From assembly GCF_963921235.1 (NCBI RefSeq), contig NC_086097.1, forward strand, positions 135,038,001 through 135,102,000: a DNA stretch of 64,000 nucleotides, written 5' to 3'. The translations under genes were made by a program, and so were the position numbers. How positions within the stretch are numbered: position 1 is the first letter of the stretch; every line of letters begins with the position of its first letter. The DNA comes from Mobula hypostoma. Lineage: Eukaryota. The notes under the pieces are model-generated. The model searched no databases, was not told the origin of the DNA, and worked only from the letters and a program-made list of their open reading frames with translations. This document shows positions 53,501-64,000 of this stretch, piece after piece.

Positions 53501-54038
53501 ATAGGTTTAAGGTGAAAGGGAAAAAAATTTATAGGAACCCAAGGGACAGCTTTTCCACACAGAGGGTGGAGTATGTATGGAACGAACTGCCTGAGAAAGT
53601 GGGAGAGTTACTTTAACATTATTTAAAGACATTAGGATAGGTAAACGAATAGGAAAGGTTTGGAGGGATATGAGGCAAACATGGTGAAATGACACCAGTT
53701 TAGATTGGCACTTTCTCTGTAACATCATATTCTACATTCTACTGTGTTTTTCTCTTGTACTACGTCAATGTACTTACGTTCAGAAATGATCTACATGGAT
53801 GGTTTGCAAAACAAAGATTTTCACCATATCTCGGGTACCTGCGACAATAATATCATTCCAATTCCGTTTCAGTTCTTTTTGGCATGAATGAGTTGAGTCG
53901 CAAAGCCTGTTGCCATGCTCTTTTACTCTAAATTACCGTGCTGGATTTAATACTCCTAAAGATACAGCAGGCTGAGTGTAAGTTAAAGCTACAATTATTG
54001 ACTTATCCACACAAGCACAGGTCAGGCCTGCACCTTAC

Positions 54039-54133
54039 CAGTAACAGCCGGTGTACACACAATCCTCCTTTAAAATAGCTGGCATTTGGCACGTATCGCC
54101 TGGGTCCAGCCCGGCGGGGTTTGGTAAACTCAT
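54039..54133 (-). CDS. NTAQ1: Protein N-terminal glutamine amidohydrolase, coding exon 1
   Basis: ATG at 54133, first in-frame ATG after an upstream TGA. Translates MSLPNPAGLDPGDTCQMPAILKEDCVYTGCY then TG|gtaag. Matches human ..DACVYSSCYC. 95 nt. Confidence 0.85.
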
Positions 54134-54400
54134 AGCACCTCCGGGAAAACGAAACTCTTCACACCGACTCTGATTTATTTTGTGCTCGGAGCCCCTTCAC
54201 CGTGACTCAGACCGGGAACCAGAATGATTCCAGCCGGAACCATGGGTCGAGCCAGCAATGCAGCCCGAATGACAATGGAGGGGGAAAGCAGCTGCACATC
54301 GACATTTCCCCGCCCACCCGATGACGTCGGCATGGTAACCGGCTGCGCGCGCACTCCACCCTGCTTCCAACGATTTCTTGTGTTTCGTGCTTCGACGACC
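54040..54400 (-). promoter_or_regulatory. CpG-rich promoter/first-exon region of NTAQ1
   Basis: Local CpG enrichment. GC box CCCCGCCC near 54308, CRE-like TGACGTC 54322-54328, X-box-like GTCGGCATGGTAAC 54326-54339, palindromic TGCGCGCGCA 54344-54353. Confidence 0.7.
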
Positions 54401-55949
54401 ACTGGTGGGACTTGGATTTTAGAACTTTTTTTTACATTTTATTGATACCTCTGCATTGCATAAGCACGGTGCACTTAAACCTTTTGGGGAATAATTGTAA
54501 CAGGTATCAACTATGGTGTTCTGAAGATGTGAAAAGTTCAGGAGATACAGGACTGCAGATGCCGGAATCTGGAGCAAAACACAAGTCTCTGGGGGTCGAG
54601 CAGCACCTGTCGGGGCAGGAGAAATTGCCGGGGTTTCGCACAGGCGCTTCTAGACCCGCTGAGTTCTTACAGCAGGTTGCTGCATGTGAAAAGTTAGCTC
54701 TGGTTTTCTCTTCGTGGTTGCTACCTGGCCAGCTGGGCATTTCCAGCGTCTGCAGTGTTTATTTTAGTGAGGACTAAGTGGATAATTTTAAGTGCGGCAT
54801 TCCTGACGGTGCAGTGTTGAGAATGTTGGGCTGTGGAAGTTGCAATGTTTCTGTTTATATCTCCTCAGATATTGCTCGGTATGCTGGATGCTTACAGCAT
54901 TTTCCGTTCTGAGGATTGATCCCTGAAATACTGACAAGACTCTTGAAACGACCTGCCATACGCTGAAGATGAATTCTCGATCTGCCAGTCTATACTGTTT
55001 CAGGCATTCCTTACCTACTCCTGCCCTGTAATTGAAGCACTGTATTCAGCATTCTGAGCTTTTTACCAGCTCAGTTTCATATAACATGATCTGCCCAGGT
55101 AGCATACAGAACGTGTTTTCTCTTTATCTTAATACACGTGACGTTAAACAATCAAATAGAAGGCAAAGTTAAATAACAAACAGATCAAGAGCAATTAAAT
55201 TAGGATGGATGTTGATATTTTAAAAAGCTGGGCTACCACTGTTGTAATTAGCTATGAATTTGTACAAGACAGATACAAATGCCCGAGACAGACCTAGCAA
55301 ACAATACCAGGTTAATTTGGAGACTGTGGCTGCAGATAAGGTGCAGAAGAGCTTGACCAGGATGCTGCCTGGATCAGAGGTTCTGAGCTCTCAGGAGAGG
55401 TTGGATTAACTTGGGTTGTTCTCCCTAAGACTGTGAGTGGGGACCTTGTAGAGATTTTTTAAATTATGAGAGGCAGAGATAGGATAAATAGAATCTTTTC
55501 CCCAGGGTTGAAATGTCAAACACTAGATGACATTATTTGAAGGTGGGGGAAGCTTACACAGAGAGTGGTGGGTTGACATTGAGCCCACGAACTTTTCCTC
55601 ACTTTTTAAAAAATATATATTTCTGTTTTCACACAATTTTTAATCTATTCAATGTACATATACTGTAATGGGTTTACTTCTTTATTTTTACTTTTTTTCT
55701 TTTATATTATGTATTGCATTGAACTGCTGCTGCTAGGTTAACAAATTTCATGACACATGCAGGTGATAATAAACTTGATTCTGGGGTACCTGGAATGTGT
55801 TACTGGGCTACCAGTGGAAGCAGAGAGATAGACATGAACACGAAGTGAATGGAGAAATATGGATGATATGCATGAGGAGGACAGTTGGTATAAATTGAAA
55901 TCAAGACTAGCAGAACATTGTGGGCCAAATGACTTGCCCAGTATTATAA

Positions 55950-58630
55950 TAGAAAACATAGAACATAGGAAACCTGCAGCACAATCCAGGCCTTTCAGCT
56001 CACAAAGCTGTGCCGAACATATCCTTACCTTAGAAATTACCTAGGGCTACCCATAGCCCTCTATTTCTCTAAGCTCCATCTACCTGTCCAGAAGTCTCTT
56101 AAAAGACCGTATCATATCCGCTTCCACCACCGTCGCTGGCAGCCCATTCCACGCACTCAGCACTCTGTGTAAAAAAAAACTTACCCCTGACATCTCCTCT
56201 GTACCTACTTCCAAGCACCTTAAAACTGTGCCCTCTCGTGCTAGCCATTTCAGCCCTGGGAAAAAGCCTCTGACTATCCACACAATCAATGCCTCTCATC
56301 ATCTTATACACCTCTATCAGGTCACCTCTCATTCTCCGTCGCTCCAAGATGAAAAGCCAGAGTTCACTCAACCTATTCTCATAAGACATGCCCCCCAATC
56401 CAGGCAACATCCTTGTAAATCTCCTCTGCACCCTTTCTATGTTTCCACATCCTTCCTGTAGTGAGGCGACCAGAACTGAGCACAGTACTCCAAGTGGGGT
56501 CTAATCAGGGTCCTATATAGCTGCAACATTACCTCTCGGCTCCTAAACTCAATCCCATGATTGATGAAGGCCAATGCACCATATGCCTTCTTAACCACAG
56601 AGTCAACCTGCGCAGCAGCTTTGAGTGTCCTATTGGCTTGGACCCCAAGATCCCTCTGGATCCTCCACACTGTCAAGTGTCTTACCATTAATACTATATT
56701 CTGACATCATATTTGACCTACCAAAATGAACCATCCCACACTTATCTGGGTTGAACTCCATCTGCCACTTCTCAGCCCAGTTTTGCATCCTATCAATGTC
56801 CCGCTGTAACCTCTGACAGCCCTCCATGCTATCCACAACACCCCCAACCTTTGTGTCATCAGCAAATTTACTAACCCATCCCTCCACTTCCTCATCCAGG
56901 TCATTTATAAAAATCACAAAGAGTAGGGGTCCCAGAACAGATCCCTGAGACACACCACTGGTCACCGACCTCCATGCAGAATATGACCCATCTACAATCA
57001 CTCTTTGCCTTCTGTGGGTAAGCCAGTTCTGGATCCATAAAGCAAGGTCCCCTTGGATCCCATGCCTCCTTACTTTCTCAATAAGCCTTGCATGGGGTAT
57101 CTTATCAACTGCTTTGCTGAAATCCATATACACTACATCTACTGCTCTACCTTCATCAATATGTTCAGTCACATCCTCAAAAAATTCAATCAGGCTCGTG
57201 AGGCATGATCTGCCTTTGACAAAGCCATGCTGACTGTTCCTAATCATATTATGCCTCTCCAAATGTTCATAAAACCTGCCTCTCAGGATCTTTTCCATCA
57301 ACTTACCAACCATGGAAGTAAGACTCACTGGTCTATAATTTCCTGGTCTATCTCTACTCCCCTTCTTGAACAAGGGAACAACATCTGCAACCCTCCAATC
57401 CTACCAAACCTCTCCCATCCCCATTGATGATGCAAAGATCATTGCCAGAGGCTCAGCAATCTCTTCCCTCGACTCCTACAGTAGCCTGGGATACATCTCA
57501 TCCAGTCCCGGAAACTTATCCAACTTGATGCTTTCCAAAAGCTTCAGCACATCTTTTTTGTTAATGTCTGTATGCTCAAGCTTTTCAATCCACTGTAAAT
57601 CAATCCCTACAGTCACCAAATCCTCTTTCATAGTGAATATTGCAGCAAAGTATTCTTTAAGTATCTCGGCTACCCCCTCCGGTTCCATACACACTTTTCC
57701 ATTGTCACACTTGATTGGTCCTATTCTCTCACATCTTATCCTCTTGCTCTTCACGTACTTGTAGAATGCCTTGGAGTTTTCCCGTAATCCTGTCTGCCAA
57801 GGCCATCTCATGGCCCCTTCCGGCTCTCCTAATTTCATTCTTAAGCTCCTTCCTGCTAACCTTATAATCTAGATCTCTATCATTACCTAGTTTTTTTGAA
57901 CCTTTCATAAGCTTTTCTCTTGACTTGATTTTCAACAGCCTTTGTACACTACGGTTCCTGTACCCTACCATCCTTTCCCTGTCTCATTGGAATGTACCTA
58001 TGCAGAACGCCACACAAATATCCCCTGAACATTTGCCACATTTCTGCTATATATTTACCTGAGAACATCTGTTACCAATTAATATTCCAAGTTCCCGCCT
58101 GATAGCTTCATATTTCCCCTTACTCCAATTAAACACTTTCCTAACTTGTCTGTTCCTATCCCTCTCCAATGCTATGGTAAAGGAGACAGAGTTGTGATCA
58201 CTATCTCCAAAATGCTCTCCCACTGAGAGACCTGACACCTGACCAGGTTCATTTCCCAATACCAGATCAAGTACAGCCTCTCCTCTTGTAGGCTTATCTA
58301 CATATTGTGTCAAGAAACCTTCCTGAACACACCGAACAAATTCCACCCCATCTGAACCCCTTGTTCTAGGGAGATGCCAATCAGTATTTGGGAAATTAAA
58401 ATCTCCCACCACAACAAGTCTGTTATTATTACACCTTTCCAGAATCTGTCTCTCTATCTCCTCCTCGATGTCCTTGTTACAACTGAGTGGTCTATAAAAA
58501 TCACCCGGTAGAGTTATTGACCCCTTCCTGTTCCTAACTCCCACCCACAGAGACTCCATAGACAATCCCTTCACGTCTTCCTCCTTTTCTACGGCCGTGA
58601 CAGAATCTCTGATCAATAGTGCCACGCCCC
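55950..58630 (-). mobile_element. 5'-truncated CR1 LINE, same subfamily as 24293-27341
   Basis: APE and RT fragments (GDFNFP, SDH, FADD). TTCTATG tail at the left end. Confidence 0.93.
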
Positions 58631-58968
58631 GTTGATCTGCGTTACTACCAAGGACCAGAAATAATTGTCAATTTATCATCTTTAAAGATCTCCAGATTCT
58701 TTGAACTACTTCAAAGGAGCAAGTTCAGGGTGAGGTCATCCCTTCCATCAAAGATAACCTGATAAAATGCTTGGGGAAGTGGTTTAATGTGTCATTGACA
58801 GACGGGGCCAATGTCACCAATGTTGTGAAGCAGACAGACGAATGGCTGAAGAAGATCAACAAATCTGGACTTCCAGGTAAATTCAAGACTTGGCTGTACC
58901 AATATGGCATTCTGCCCAGGCTTCTCTGGCTCTTCACACTTTATGAGTTCCCCATGACTGCCATAGAG

Positions 58969-60145
58969 CAGGGATCCCCAACCTTTTTTGCATCGCGGAC
59001 CGGTTTATTATTGACAATATTCTTGCGGACCGGCCGACCCGAGGGGGGGGGGTAGGGTTGCCAACGGACAAGAGGAGCAGTCAAATACGTTGTGTTTACC
59101 CCGAGAAAGACTACCATGACCATGAAGCCTTGCGCAGGCACCTGTGTGTGCATGCGTGTACGTGCCGATTTTTTTTACAAATCGTTTTTGGCAATTCTGT
59201 TCGGCGGGGGGTGTTAATCACAACCGGAATATAGGTGATAAGTGGCTAATACACTCAATTTCGTTTCTAAAAGGGTTTATCTAATGAATTTAATATTAAG
59301 CACAGTGCATTATTTTCCTCGCATTAATATAGTGATAAGTCAATTATCAGGGGAGGACAGGGGAACTTGAAGTAAGTGTTGAACGAACTTCCAGTAGAAG
59401 TGGTAGAGGCAGGTTCGATATTATCATTTAAAGAAAAATTGGATAGGTATATGGACCGGAAAGGGATGGAGCGTTATGGGCTGAGTACAGGTCGGTGGGA
59501 CTAGGTGAGAGTAGCGTTCGGCGCGGTCTAGAAGGGCCGAGATGCCTGTTTCCGTGCTGTAATTGTTATATGGTTATATAAGTCAATAGCATCAAAACAT
59601 TTTAAGTAATGTTTGGATATTAAACACACAGCACATATTTTCCCCGTATGAACATATAAAATCATTGTAACACACCAATATCGCTGAATCAGTGGGAGCT
59701 CTGGGCTTGTTTCCCTGCAACCAGACGGTGCCATCGAGGGGTGATAGGAGACAGTGATACTCGAAGGGGGTTCCTTATGTCCAGTCTATTCCACAATTTA
59801 ATTTTTGTTGCATTCATTGCAGAGATATGTTGGAAACAGAAGCAATGTTTTCAGTGCTTTCGTGGCTATCTCAGGATATTCAGCCTTGACTTTGATCCAG
59901 AATGCTGGCAGAGATGTTATGTCAAACATACTTTTCAGCCCACCATCATTTGCAAGCTCGAGGAATTGATCTCCTTCCCTCACTGACATGGATGACTCGC
60001 GGGTAATGACCTTGCGTGCATTCAAGCTCAGCAGTGCGCATGACAGGGAATGAGGAAAGGTGCAGCTGACTCATATCGCCAAATCATAGCATTTTCTCGC
60101 GGCCCAGTAGCACATGCTTTGCGGCCCGGTGGTTGGGGACTGCTG
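58969..60145 (-). mobile_element. Non-autonomous hAT (Charlie/Buster) element with transposase remnant and CR1 cargo
   Basis: TSD CCATAGAG/CCGTAGAG. TIR cagggatccccaacc / ggttggggactgctg. Remnant SLPAFWIKVKAEYPEIATKALKTLLLFPTYLC. CR1 3' end at about 59378-59580. Confidence 0.9.
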
Positions 60146-61443
60146 CCGTAGAGGGCATCGAGAGGAAAACCACCAAGCAGCTGTGGAGGTGGGTGGGAGT
60201 TCCCCCAAGCTTCTCTTCAGTGGGCCTCTACATTCGTTCTGGGCAACTGCAGCTTCCCCTGTCATCTGTTGTGGAGGAATTTAAGGTGGCAAAATGCAGA
60301 GTCTTACTAAGCTTGAGAGATTCCAATGACATCTTGGTAAAGCAAGCAGGTGTTACAACCAGATCTGGGCGCAAGCGGGCAGCCAACGCAGCTGTGGAGG
60401 AGGCAGTGTGTTCTCTGAAGCTGTGAGATATCATCGGCAACCCCTGCATTGGGCGGCAAGGCCTCGGCTCAGTTCACTTCCAGCAGTGGGGAAACGCAAG
60501 CATAAAGAACGGGCGAGACATGGTACAGGCAGAAGAAGGGATCCACAAGGAAGAGAAGCGGGTGTCAAAGGCAGTGGAACAAGGGTCCCAGGGTGCCTGG
60601 ACAAAATGGGATCTGCCTAAGCGCCAGATCTCATGGGCAGAGTTATGGAGACTGGAGCCCTTCCGTATTTCCTTCCTCTTGCAATCCGTGTATGACACTC
60701 TTCCTTCGCCATTACATCTGTACACATGGGGGATGAGAGAGGACACGAACTGTAAGCTCTGTGGTCAAAAGGGGACACTGGCTCATATATTGTCCAGGTG
60801 TAAAACAGCTCTAACTCAAGGACGGTATAGGTGGCGCCATGATAAGGTGCTTCTGGCTCTTGCTGACACACTTAGAGCAGGAGAGGTGCAAGAAGAGGAC
60901 GGCTGGCACTGATTTGAGGAAGGCCATCACCTTCATCAAAGAGGGAGCCAGGCCATTCGTAACCAAACAACCAAAATCCAATCTGCTGCTAACGGCCAGG
61001 TCTTGGGGAGATGGGGGTCGATGTGGGAAGGAGGTTGCAGTTCCCGGATGTGGTGCACACAACTCTACACCCTGACATTGTACTGTGGTCAACCGAAGAC
61101 AAGAAAATAATTCTGGTTGAGCTGACTGTGCTGTGAGAGAAGGGATAGGAAGAGGCCCATGAGAGAAAGGCCTTGAAGTACCAGCCCTTAGTGCAGGAGT
61201 GTAAGGACAAGGGATGGCAGACATGGTTGTTCCCTGTGGAGATCGGCTGCAGAGGTTTCCCACCCAAATCAACATGGCGATTGTTGTCAGATCTGGGCCT
61301 GGACGAAAGGAGCAAAAAACAAGCAGCTCGTAGGATGGGGGAAGAGGCAGAAAGAGCCTCTTGTTGGATTTGGAGTAGGCGAGAGGAGGGAAGCTAGAAG
61401 CCAGGAGCAGATGGGCAGTGATTTGGCCACAAATGCCGGCCCA

Positions 61444-61512
61444 CCAACTGGAGAGGGTCGTGGTTAAGGGTCGAAACACTCTGTGAAGGTTGGGAACCAC
61501 CTGATGACATCT
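61444..61512 (+). ncRNA. Putative non-circularly permuted hammerhead ribozyme with kink-turn in the HERO 3'UTR
   Basis: GUC site 61457-61459, GAAA 61473-61476, CUGAUGA 61501-61507. Stem I GUGGUU/AACCAC, stem III GAGGGU/ACACUC, k-turn and CCAACU/GGUUGG helix. Confidence 0.65.
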
Positions 61513-61679
61513 GCTTCGGCTGAAGGCTACGGTTACCTTATAAGGTAACTGGAGAATGCACCCTAAAAGGTATATGTAACAAGCTAGCTAATATACTTTA
61601 TATTTACAGGAGGTACAATGCCTAACTTGCATACAATATGAACAGTATGGTATGCAAAAAGCAACTCTGGTATTTAATC

Positions 61680-61803
61680 AACACACATAAAAGTTGCTGG
61701 TGAACGCAGCAGGCCAGGCAGCATCTCTAGGAAGAGGAACAGTCGACATTTCAGGCTGAGACCCTTCGCTTGAAATTCCAGCATCTGCAGATTTCCTCCT
61801 GTA
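61680..61803. mobile_element. Penelope terminal repeat fragment with internal inversion
   Basis: 61680-61769 is the same family as 156-250 (- strand). It is followed by a + strand cttgaaattccagcatctgcag segment. Confidence 0.6.
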
Positions 61804-62436
61804 TGATGTTTAATGAAAGCTTACATGGAATATTTTATCTCTTATCTGAAGGTGCAGACGTGGCCTCATACAAATTCCCATCTGATAGTATATCTTGTAA
61901 TGAAACAAATCATCTCAAGGGGTGGTAGAGAGAAATGTTTATTACATTTAATAAGTATCTGAATGGGTTTTGGGCAAAGAAAACAGCATCTTTCACCAAA
62001 TTGATGGTCTTCCAGCTGCCTTTGATGTCTGTCTCAGTGTGACCTTGGGACTAGCCCGTACAGTCAAGGACAGCTTTTAACCTGGTGGTATTATTCTATT
62101 GACTGGTCCTCTAGTAAGATAAATAAACTCCCAAGATCACAGTCTATCTCCTCAAAGCCTTGCACCTTCTTGTTTGCTTTGCACTGCACTTTCTTTGTAA
62201 CTGTCATACTCCTATTCTGCATTGTTATGGTTTTCCTTTGTACTACTTTAATGCACCTTGACAATCTGTATGGATGGCATGTAAAACGAAGTTTTTCACC
62301 ATCCCTTAGTCCATGTGACAATAACAAATTTAGATCAGAGAGTTCTCCGTTCCACAGCTCCCTTATAAACTGTGTCAAGAACTCTTCTGTTCATCCTGCC
62401 TCCACACTCTCTTTGCAAAGAGGAGGTAGACCATCT

Positions 62437-64000
62437 CAAGGTTCAAGATTGTTCGATGTCCTTTTCACAATACAAGTGTAAAGGAGAATGAAATAAATGT
62501 TGCTCCGGATGCAGCACAAAAAGAAAACACAAAAAGGTAAGGTCCATATATAAGATATGTCCATAAAGTGACACTAGGCACAGGAGTGTCTATCCATCAG
62601 GCGACTGACAGGAAATGATACAGTAGTGGTGGTTGGGGGCTGTGGAGGGGTGGGTTAGTGGATAGAAGAGTTGATCAGCTTTATTGCTTGGGAAAGTAAC
62701 CTTTTTTGCATCTGGTGGTCCTGGCACAGATGCTGTGCAGCTTCCTCCGTAATGGCAGTGGGACAAACAGTCCATGAGCAGTGTGGGTGGGATACTTCAT
62801 GATGTTACTGGGCACCTTTCTGTGTACTTACGCCCTTGATGGCAGTAGGCTGGTGCCTGTGATGTGTTGGGCAGTTTTGATGACCTAATGTAGGGCATTC
62901 CCATCCACTGCGGTGCTGTTTCTGTACCATGCACTGATGCAGTTCATTAGGATGCTCTCTAAGTGCTTCTGTAGAATGACTTGAGTGCACAGTCCAGCTG
63001 TCTTCAGCCTCCTCTGAAAGCAGAGGCGTTGGTGAGCTTTCCTGATTGTGTGAGACGTATACTGGGACCATGAGAGGTTGTGCAAGATGTGCACTCTCCA
63101 GTTTCAGACTAAATGTAGTTTCCACTGCTGTGCTGTCGATGTACTGTATATAGGGATGCGAGTTCTCCTGAAGTCGATAACCATCTCCTTTGTCTTACTG
63201 GCATTGCTGTTGTTTCTTTCCGCGTCGTCTCGTTGTGTCATTTCTTTAGCACTTTTGTCTGTCTTTTATGAGGCCGGGTTGCTAGCTTGACGTTCGACCC
63301 GATACGTATGGAAAATGTGCAAGGATTCGAACCTGGGACCACTTGCCTCAAAGTCCATTGGGGATGCCAGTTGTTTCTTGTTGACATTGAGGAAAGCGTC
63401 AGGTTGCTGGTGATGAGTCCCACTGCTGTTATGTCAGTGGTGAACTTGTCGATGTGTTCTCTCGGGTGTTTAGCTGTGCAGTCACTTGTGCACAGAGTGT
63501 ACCGCAATGGGCTGAGCACACAGTTCTGGATGGCGTCCGTGTTTAAGATGATGGGGAGAGAGGAGTGGTAATACATCCCGACTACTTGGGTCTGTTGGTT
63601 AGGAAGTCCAACATCCGGTTGCACAGCGATGTATTCAGGCTGAGAAATAAGAGTTTGTTCACTAAGGTCTGTGGGACTTGCCGAACTGAAATTCAGACAC
63701 TGCATTCAAACATAAGTGCCCTTGTTTGCCGGGTGTGTTAAGGCCAGGTGCTTGACAGACGCTAAGGCATTTCATAGAGAGGTTCTACCGGTAAGCATAT
63801 TGATGAATGTCCAGTGTGGCAGGAATATAGTTTTTGAGATGTGCCATTACCAGCTGTTCAAAGCATTTAATGATGATTGGCATCAGTGCCATCGAGCAAT
63901 AGTCATTTCGTTCTGAGGGCGTAGAGTTCTTTGGTACAGGGGTGATGGTGACTGATTTGAGGCACGAGGGGACAGCAGCCTGGGTGAGTAAACTGTTGAC
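62437..64000 (-). mobile_element. Degenerate Rex1/Babar-type LINE running off the window
   Basis: ILNTDAIQNCVLSPLRYTLCTSDCTA..KFTTD and KAHQRLCFQRRLK..ESILMNCISAWY. Confidence 0.75.
63205..63370 (-). mobile_element. tRNA-derived SINE inserted in the Rex-type LINE
   Basis: Minus-strand Pol III B box GGTTCGAATCC and an aac-type tail. Interrupts the RT remnant. Confidence 0.55.

Follow-up and report, generated by a model that had tools for sequence, protein, structure and literature searches.

Our analysis has shown that the RNA of a HERO-like retrotransposon copy in the genome of Mobula hypostoma contains, near its 3' end, what is almost certainly a conserved hammerhead fold, in which the catalytic strand is parted from stem II between A9 and G10.1. 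This split is a new permutation, outside the six named hammerhead types, and the likelihood that the RNA works in a hammerhead-like manner is not lowered by it. Within the window (the whole stretch of DNA that was analysed, 64,000 nucleotides), the ribozyme element spans about 61404-61517, beyond the 61444..61512 given in the initial annotation. Its parts and those of the host copy are as follows.

58720..58968, plus strand: 5' piece of the HERO-like copy, corresponding to the end of the reverse transcriptase (RT) region, 92-94% identical to family copies
60143..61583, plus strand: 3' piece of the copy, with zinc knuckle, restriction-like endonuclease and 3' UTR
61404..61413, plus strand: 5' strand of P0, formed by the last codons of the family ORF and pairing with 61508-61517
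61414..61437, plus strand: hairpin Pb, 61414-20 with 61431-37, 88% of cells paired
61438..61442, plus strand: 5' strand of stem II, with G10.1 at 61438, 95% paired with the strand before GAAA
61444..61452, plus strand: 5' strand of the kink-turn (k-turn) arm, with NC helix at 61444-49 and positions 3n, 2n and 1n at 61450-52, 86% paired
61453..61465, plus strand: block S, comprising the stem III 5' strand (61453-58), C17 (61459) and the stem I 5' strand (61460-65)
61468..61481, plus strand: block G, comprising the stem II 3' strand (61468-72), GAAA (61473-76) and the stem III 3' strand (61476-81)
61482..61493, plus strand: 3' strand of the k-turn arm, with the 3-nt bulge, GA-A and NC helix 61488-93
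61495..61507, plus strand: stem I 3' strand (61495-500) and CUGAUGA (61501-07), that is, block C minus its stem II strand
61508..61517, plus strand: 3' strand of P0, immediately after A9
61518..61583, plus strand: 3' tail of the element, which in tandem copies abuts the 5' UTR of the next unit

The window copy is 5'-truncated and decayed. Its two pieces run on uninterrupted in family copies, the endonuclease frame is interrupted by stops and shifts, and the zf-RVT match in the 3' piece (E 3e-5) falls under the Pfam cut-off; the initial annotation had correctly placed the site at the 3' end of a decayed LINE of the restriction-like endonuclease (RLE) type. The copy is interrupted at 58969-60142 by a DNA transposon, which we take to be hAT-like; its inverted ends are 16 nt long and its target duplication measures 8 bp. 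A decayed APE-type LINE on the minus strand (~56100-58667, with endonuclease and RT Pfam matches) adjoins the HERO piece upstream, and a long hairpin lies at 61515-61566, in the tail 3' of the ribozyme; HERO tails vary between families in length and sequence. For the repeat family in the M. hypostoma genome, a first look gave 1464 candidates; scoring covered 40 of them, and 30 copies were fetched. All 30 fetched copies share a 3' end at ~61583, and GUC, GAAA and CUGANGA are all preserved in 26 of them. The two C-to-A changes that weaken hairpin Pb are private to the window copy. One sub-pattern of the motif has a single occurrence in the window and is absent from all 100 shuffles; together with the covariation of the helices across 39 clusters, this sets the motif far above chance expectation. 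The Rfam hammerhead models gave no match in 54000-64000, up to E 5.

Full-length relatives contain an RT, a downstream Cys-His knuckle and a PD..E/D endonuclease motif in one ORF, and by these protein motifs the element is an RLE-type LINE; the nearest solved relatives are R2 proteins (E 2.5e-21). The family's C-terminal protein is 42% identical to a Tetraodon protein clustered with BAC82599, in a comparison with references not labelled HERO, and a Tetraodon RLE protein of the same cluster, AAN12398, is 71% identical to that of the ribozyme-bearing locus L078. We take BAC82599 to be HEROTn and the Tetraodon cluster to represent Zebulon and HEROTn. The HERO label used here depends on closeness to this cluster. 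Zebulon was reportedly described by Bouneau et al. in 2003 as a tandem-structured non-LTR element of Tetraodon, and we know of no ribozyme in that description. The Tetraodon elements resemble ours in their RLE protein, which is near that of L078, and, by the paper's title, in their tandem structure; the tandem habit of HERO/Zebulon is therefore probably already known. The relatives have a knuckle spacing of CX2CX7HX4C, for which PMC2790886 gives X8, and an N-terminal Cys-His motif is present in these proteins, unlike HERO as described in the same paper (PMC2790886).

Relatives were collected through their proteins. A 411-aa open frame from one family copy retrieved 363 proteins, among which the named matches came from fishes, amphioxus, bivalves and a crinoid. 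An alignment of 21 protein matches led to the best 80 of 364 confirmed loci, all from metagenome contigs; these were picked on protein alone and showed 43-82% identity over the endonuclease domain. The RNA motif was examined in these metagenome-contig loci and in the M. hypostoma copies. In 68 of the 80 loci, the sequence 3' of the ORF end gave a usable parse in which N-U-H is followed by GAAA and then by CUGANGA. The remaining 12, most of them cut by contig ends, comprised 10 without any parse and two that were mis-parsed (L058 and L092). Four of 69 loci with fewer than 10 nt after A9 were left out, L169 was removed from repeat comparisons as a duplicate of L168, and L036 and L066 were given a forced position 16.1. 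The main argument is based on 39 clusters at 85% identity, aligned by sequence only. A covariance model matched 77 of the 80 loci at E<0.02, on the sense strand every time, and two of the three unmatched loci retain just 1-2 bases on the contig. Three loci outside both the parse and the training sets (L092, L096 and L110) fit the entire structure; the L110 match sits in an upstream unit.

The catalytic core is strongly conserved in these relatives. GUC (61457-59), GAAA and CUGAUGA, as well as stem I, were found in the window exactly where the initial annotation had listed them. Among the 39 representatives, U4, G5, A6, A9, A13 and A14 are invariant and C3, G8 and G12 are each present in 38; GAAA is found in 38, CUGANGA in 37 and the pair U16.1-A15.1 in 38. 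N7 is free, with 13 changes on the tree. Position 17 shows 19 tree changes among C, U and A with avoidance of G, the sole G belonging to a decayed locus with forced register. Such a pattern of fixed and free letters is what hammerhead catalysis demands. Stems I, II and III abut the core and covary, stem II by way of an upstream strand. Based on this conservation, we consider it probable that the hammerhead is catalytically active in some members, with the cut predicted 3' of C17 (61459). A different reading is that the RNA is a non-cleaving scaffold, a recognition element in the 3' UTR for the HERO protein in which the A9/G10.1 junction disables catalysis. Structured 3' UTRs are recognised by R2-type proteins (PMC12222951), and the scaffold would agree with the lack of a direct sign of cutting and with a cut site that is intact in nearly all copies. 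However, a binding site would more likely fix N7 and position 17 than leave the one free and let the other avoid G over 19 changes, and a few junctions of copies fall exactly on position 1.1; we regard the scaffold as very unlikely.

Core conservation and covariation had been proposed at the outset as the check on the fold, and both were found across the 39 clusters. The six-helix model paired 86% of cells, against 62% in shuffled controls (none of 500 as high) and 35-48% in slid controls, and two-sided changes were seen at 32 of 36 pairs in the sequence-only alignment. With a tree-based null along the protein tree, the top 22 of 2346 column pairs all fell within the proposed helices and 20 of these 22 had E<0.05, a check that is not independent for P0, Pb and stem II, whose positions were set by pairing score in parsing and in the anchored alignment. 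The first three pairs of stem I covary strongly. Its last two scored poorly in the sequence-only alignment because of gap placement and covary in the anchored one. P0, of 10 bp in the window copy, has two-sided changes at 7 of 7 counted pairs, as does Pb at 7 of 7 pairs; the family stop codon (61419-21) lies inside Pb. Single-sequence folding recovered P0 in 28 of 39 representatives, Pb in 31, stem III in 13, stem II in 12 and stem I in one; this method is unable to form a pseudoknot and misfolds the decayed window copy.

The true stem II is formed by the strand before GAAA with 61438-42, approximately 20 nt upstream of the cut triplet. Its first pair, 10.1-11.1, is G-C in 31 and G-U in 4 of the 39 representatives, and the next four pairs show 22, 12, 14 and 5 two-sided changes. 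The partner initially proposed for 61468-72, namely 61508-12, was rejected: its cells are paired at 46%, which is chance level, its first pair fits only 5 of 39 representatives and its ensemble probability is 0.00 in 39 of 39, as compared with 95% of cells for the upstream partner. A9 is joined to P0 and not to 10.1, which lies ~70 nt upstream. Covariation thus places the exit of the RNA ends, in the predicted fold, at a four-way junction of P0, Pb, stem II and core, located between A9 and G10.1. The three junction pairs are canonical with zero spare bases in 32 of 39 representatives. The position following A9 varies freely, with 15 tree changes, and tracks its upstream P0 partner.

The stem III arm carries the second distinctive part of the fold. 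Stem III itself was found where first annotated, and its G-A mismatch proved to be private decay of the window copy, since U stands there in 29 of 30 family copies. The k-turn-like loop (61482-87 against 61450-52) and the adjoining helix (61444-49/61488-93) were likewise recovered. A kink-turn consists of a C helix, a 3-nt bulge, tandem G.A / A.G pairs and an NC helix. All four k-turn G/A letters together with the 3-nt bulge are present in 25 of 39 representatives, three of the four letters in 9 more, and 5 are weaker, each sequence being scored by the best of nine registers. Judged by these letters, the stem III arm has kept the k-turn consensus.

How does this fold relate to published hammerheads? 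Eckert et al. 2023 (PMC10085705) described the hammerhead as three blocks, S, G and C, taken as unbreakable and therefore giving six orders. Types SGC, CSG and GCS were validated in vitro, none of them in animals as far as that account extends: SGC was from metatranscriptomes only (HRIMA-1), CSG from metagenomes and GCS once from a bacterium, with slow cleavage by SGC ribozymes of 0.007-0.19 per min (PMC10085705). Non-circular permutations, mentioned in the initial annotation as a published kind, are indeed reported there in the S-G-C order of metatranscriptome RNAs. The order assigned to the HERO element was right in being non-circular and pseudoknotted, with all three of the stems (I, II and III) mutually crossing, but it is not plain S-G-C; it is really 10.x - S - G - (2.x-CUGANGA). 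In full, the strand order supported by covariation is P0 - Pb - 10.x - k-turn arm - (16.x N17 1.x) - (11.x GAAA 15.x) - k-turn arm - (2.x CUGANGA) - P0'. Relative to the SGC/CSG/GCS family, the fold is circularly permuted, with its opening inside block C; the S-to-G, G-to-C and 10.x-to-S links of that family are all present together. Two other assignments were rejected. Plain type SGC agrees in block order and crossing stems, but block C is split; for types I, II and III, the pseudoknot-free three-way junction is absent and there is no Rfam match.

The HERO form and the SGC/CSG/GCS types are alike in core, in three crossing stems, in a short link between stems I and II and in an additional helix between the strands that follow 10.x and precede 2.x (PMC10085705). 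They differ in that the published types have the stem II strand right after CUGANGA, while in HERO it has moved upstream with a four-way junction instead; furthermore, in HERO a k-turn closes the arm and the host is an animal retrotransposon. Judging by strand order, the k-turn NC helix would occupy the place of the SGC helix that bridges stems I and II. This bridging helix and the stem III tip can join directly though they are distant in the crystal structure (PMC10085705), and the k-turn would be a natural means to join them. In the predicted fold, the stem II tip is linked directly to the k-turn arm by 0-1 nt. As for the opening, an additional base is accepted by natural hammerheads at stem II's 5' end (PMC4209133), which means that the backbone can open at that position. 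In the open-access literature searched, no report of a HERO ribozyme or of a hammerhead with split block C was found. No match was found in viral contigs by protein or by pattern, and one pattern match in prokaryote genomes, lying inside a gene and without a model match, was rejected as chance.

Tandem copies provide the context for a possible use. When M. hypostoma copies bearing a 5' UTR were sought with a foreign 5' UTR (40 of 244 candidates scored), the family's own 3' end preceded 33 of the 40 across a near-constant junction. Of the 50 metagenome loci whose sequence continues for 450 bases or more beyond the core, 11 have a tail that leads directly into a HERO N-terminus. A target duplication of ~30 bp encloses partial repeat and full unit in 2 of 20 tested tandem loci (L163 and L175), so the two were inserted there as one event, which rules out that a second insertion at a 5' end gave rise to these two tandems; a clear target duplication is absent in the other 18. 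The copies thus show that the family inserts as the 3' part of one unit followed by a full unit in single events. Among contigs of 4 of 24 sequencing runs, which carry neither end nor strand information, one bridges the tail-5'UTR junction, in a run presumed to be RNA; this contig does not enter the argument. On another contig, two HERO families 69% alike in DNA (L034 and L033) stand head to tail, which could reflect template jumping, targeting across families or a join made in assembly.

The HERO 5' UTR is conserved as well. Its short hairpins, three or four in number, have loops resembling GAAAGA and each follow UGAC or UGGC; two-sided changes occur at 13 of 19 predicted pairs (L034:3096-3255, L181:4567-4726 and ten more loci, alignment A3). 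They possibly serve as a protein-binding array or translation-start element. Several ORFs downstream of these hairpins open without methionine.

Most copies were made from uncut RNA. Among exact copies, the cut site is intact in 220, one begins at it and none ends at it, counts that are at odds with the simple 3'-end self-cleavage first suggested. A lone 3' product is accordingly rejected as a common short element (1 match against 220), as is the 5' cleavage product as a template, its lone pattern match being an internal deletion. The 5' ends of copies spread continuously across the tail-5'UTR junction; of 33 upstream repeats, 20 extend far beyond the cut site and another 3 go beyond it by 4-7 bases, 2 break off at the site itself or one base after it, and 8 fall short of it. 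An unbiased search for junctions gave 13 matches, namely 9 truncations and 4 internal deletions; position 1.1 itself is the endpoint of two of the truncations, one of which has the next base mismatched. When pooled with the tandem set, 3 of 13 5' junctions lie exactly on 1.1 in a span of ~28 positions (P ~0.01), and a targeted search found one further copy starting at 1.1. This excess could be a weak footprint of cleavage; pausing of RT on structure is an alternative for the clusters at both 1.1 and A9. Four of the 33 upstream repeats (L159, L166, L176 and L179) begin within 4 bases of the A9/P0 boundary, likely reflecting an RT pause at the four-way junction. L200, L201 and L202 lack ~6 bases across the predicted cut site, which could be RT slippage over a nick or a single inherited event, and in L111 a HERO RT-like coding sequence is joined directly to position 1.1.

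Uncut templates would also be expected if the ribozyme were an attenuator or 3' end former, in which downstream cleavage removes the priming tail and limits copy number, the product being a translation-only RNA or a destroyed template. Copies would then arise from uncut RNA only, as observed. In 34 of 68 loci, moreover, the end of the stop codon lies no more than 22 nt from 10.1 and the junction overlaps the codon, and L208 resembles a lone copy of the 3' product. An attenuator, however, leaves the tandem structure unaccounted for, and one would expect a self-limiting feature to disappear more frequently than a motif found in nearly all loci suggests; we judge it decidedly unlikely.

We lean slightly towards a model in which a slow or gated hammerhead trims a longer-than-unit HERO precursor, with cleavage incomplete. 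Tandem HERO loci would be transcribed from upstream, and the ribozyme of the upstream repeat would cut the element from read-through RNA, as the HDV-like ribozyme of R2 does, leaving a 5' end at 1.1; reverse transcription would begin at the downstream tail. Cleavage would have to be incomplete, since the downstream ribozyme needs to escape cutting and in most copies the upstream one has been read through. The four-way junction may act as the gate: in half of the loci the stop codon lies inside it, so that it would be unfolded by the HERO protein or by a ribosome at termination; such a gate is not universal. The R2 ribozyme at the 5' end cuts an RLE-type LINE from its read-through transcript (PMC13580325), and the proposed role in HERO is alike. 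The R2 ribozyme is of another class, though, and that of HERO is at the unit's 3' end, so that it would act on a 5' end only through the tandem arrangement. Against the trimming model count the 220 intact sites with a single start and the 20 of 33 repeats that reach well past the site. Furthermore, a copy starting at 1.1 has no complete upstream ribozyme, and renewal of tandem masters is left unexplained.

Such renewal would follow if tandem RNA were cut to unit length and circularised, by RtcB or self-ligation, with rolling reverse transcription from the tail. Cut-and-rejoin rolling RT has been proposed for retrozymes and Penelope elements (PMC7229834, PMC4209133), and a circle would also account for intact cut sites, the constant tail-5'UTR junction and the spread of 5' ends. 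In 20 loci, rare variants common to the repeats of one locus numbered 19 against 9.7 +/- 2.8 by chance (P 0.002), as a circle would lead one to expect, and L181 crosses two junctions: beyond its full unit lie 101 bases of 5' UTR and, after them, the tail's final 20 bases, which would fit an RT that began at a tail and then jumped into a 5' UTR. A circle nevertheless predicts identical repeats at insertion, and the two repeats of a locus diverged by 4.3%, compared with 5.0% for repeats from different loci and 4.5% for downstream repeats among themselves. Eight upstream-only variants are common to L181 and L188, L173 and L179 share an upstream signature that is missing downstream, and L034/L033 combine two families. 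Since repeats with upstream-only signatures are not copies of one sequence, linear longer-than-unit templates are favoured over a unit circle; a strict unit circle is disfavoured, and we consider the circular route as a whole unlikely. The upstream repeat of L181, common to L188, also has G12 changed to A.

Returning to the trimming of a longer-than-unit precursor, Penelope-like elements (PMC4209133) and metazoan retrozymes (PMC7229834) likewise have a hammerhead within a terminal repeat and head-to-tail, more-than-unit copies. Their hammerheads are of type I, often minimal and dimeric, and reside in GIY-YIG elements or non-autonomous repeats. The HERO form, in contrast, is full, monomeric and pseudoknotted, lies in an autonomous RLE LINE and has unit circles disfavoured.

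A more far-reaching reading, put forward with some reserve and at rather less than even confidence, is an active hammerhead of a seventh topology with a switch at the A9-G10.1 junction, which would be read by a terminating ribosome or by the element's own protein; the ribozyme would drive a tandem or circular cycle of animal-wide HERO-type LINEs. If true, no earlier non-circularly permuted hammerhead would be known from an animal genome or a retrotransposon, nor any earlier natural form whose catalytic strand is detached from stem II. Descriptor and Rfam searches miss such a topology by construction, and further ribozymes may be hidden from them. Many natural variants with covarying stems would be on offer for biochemistry and structure, and A9/G10.1 would be a natural entry point for switch building. 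For the family itself, the finding would offer a testable account of why Zebulon/HERO elements are tandem, and would bear on how the template end is defined in RLE-type LINEs, which are now used for gene insertion.
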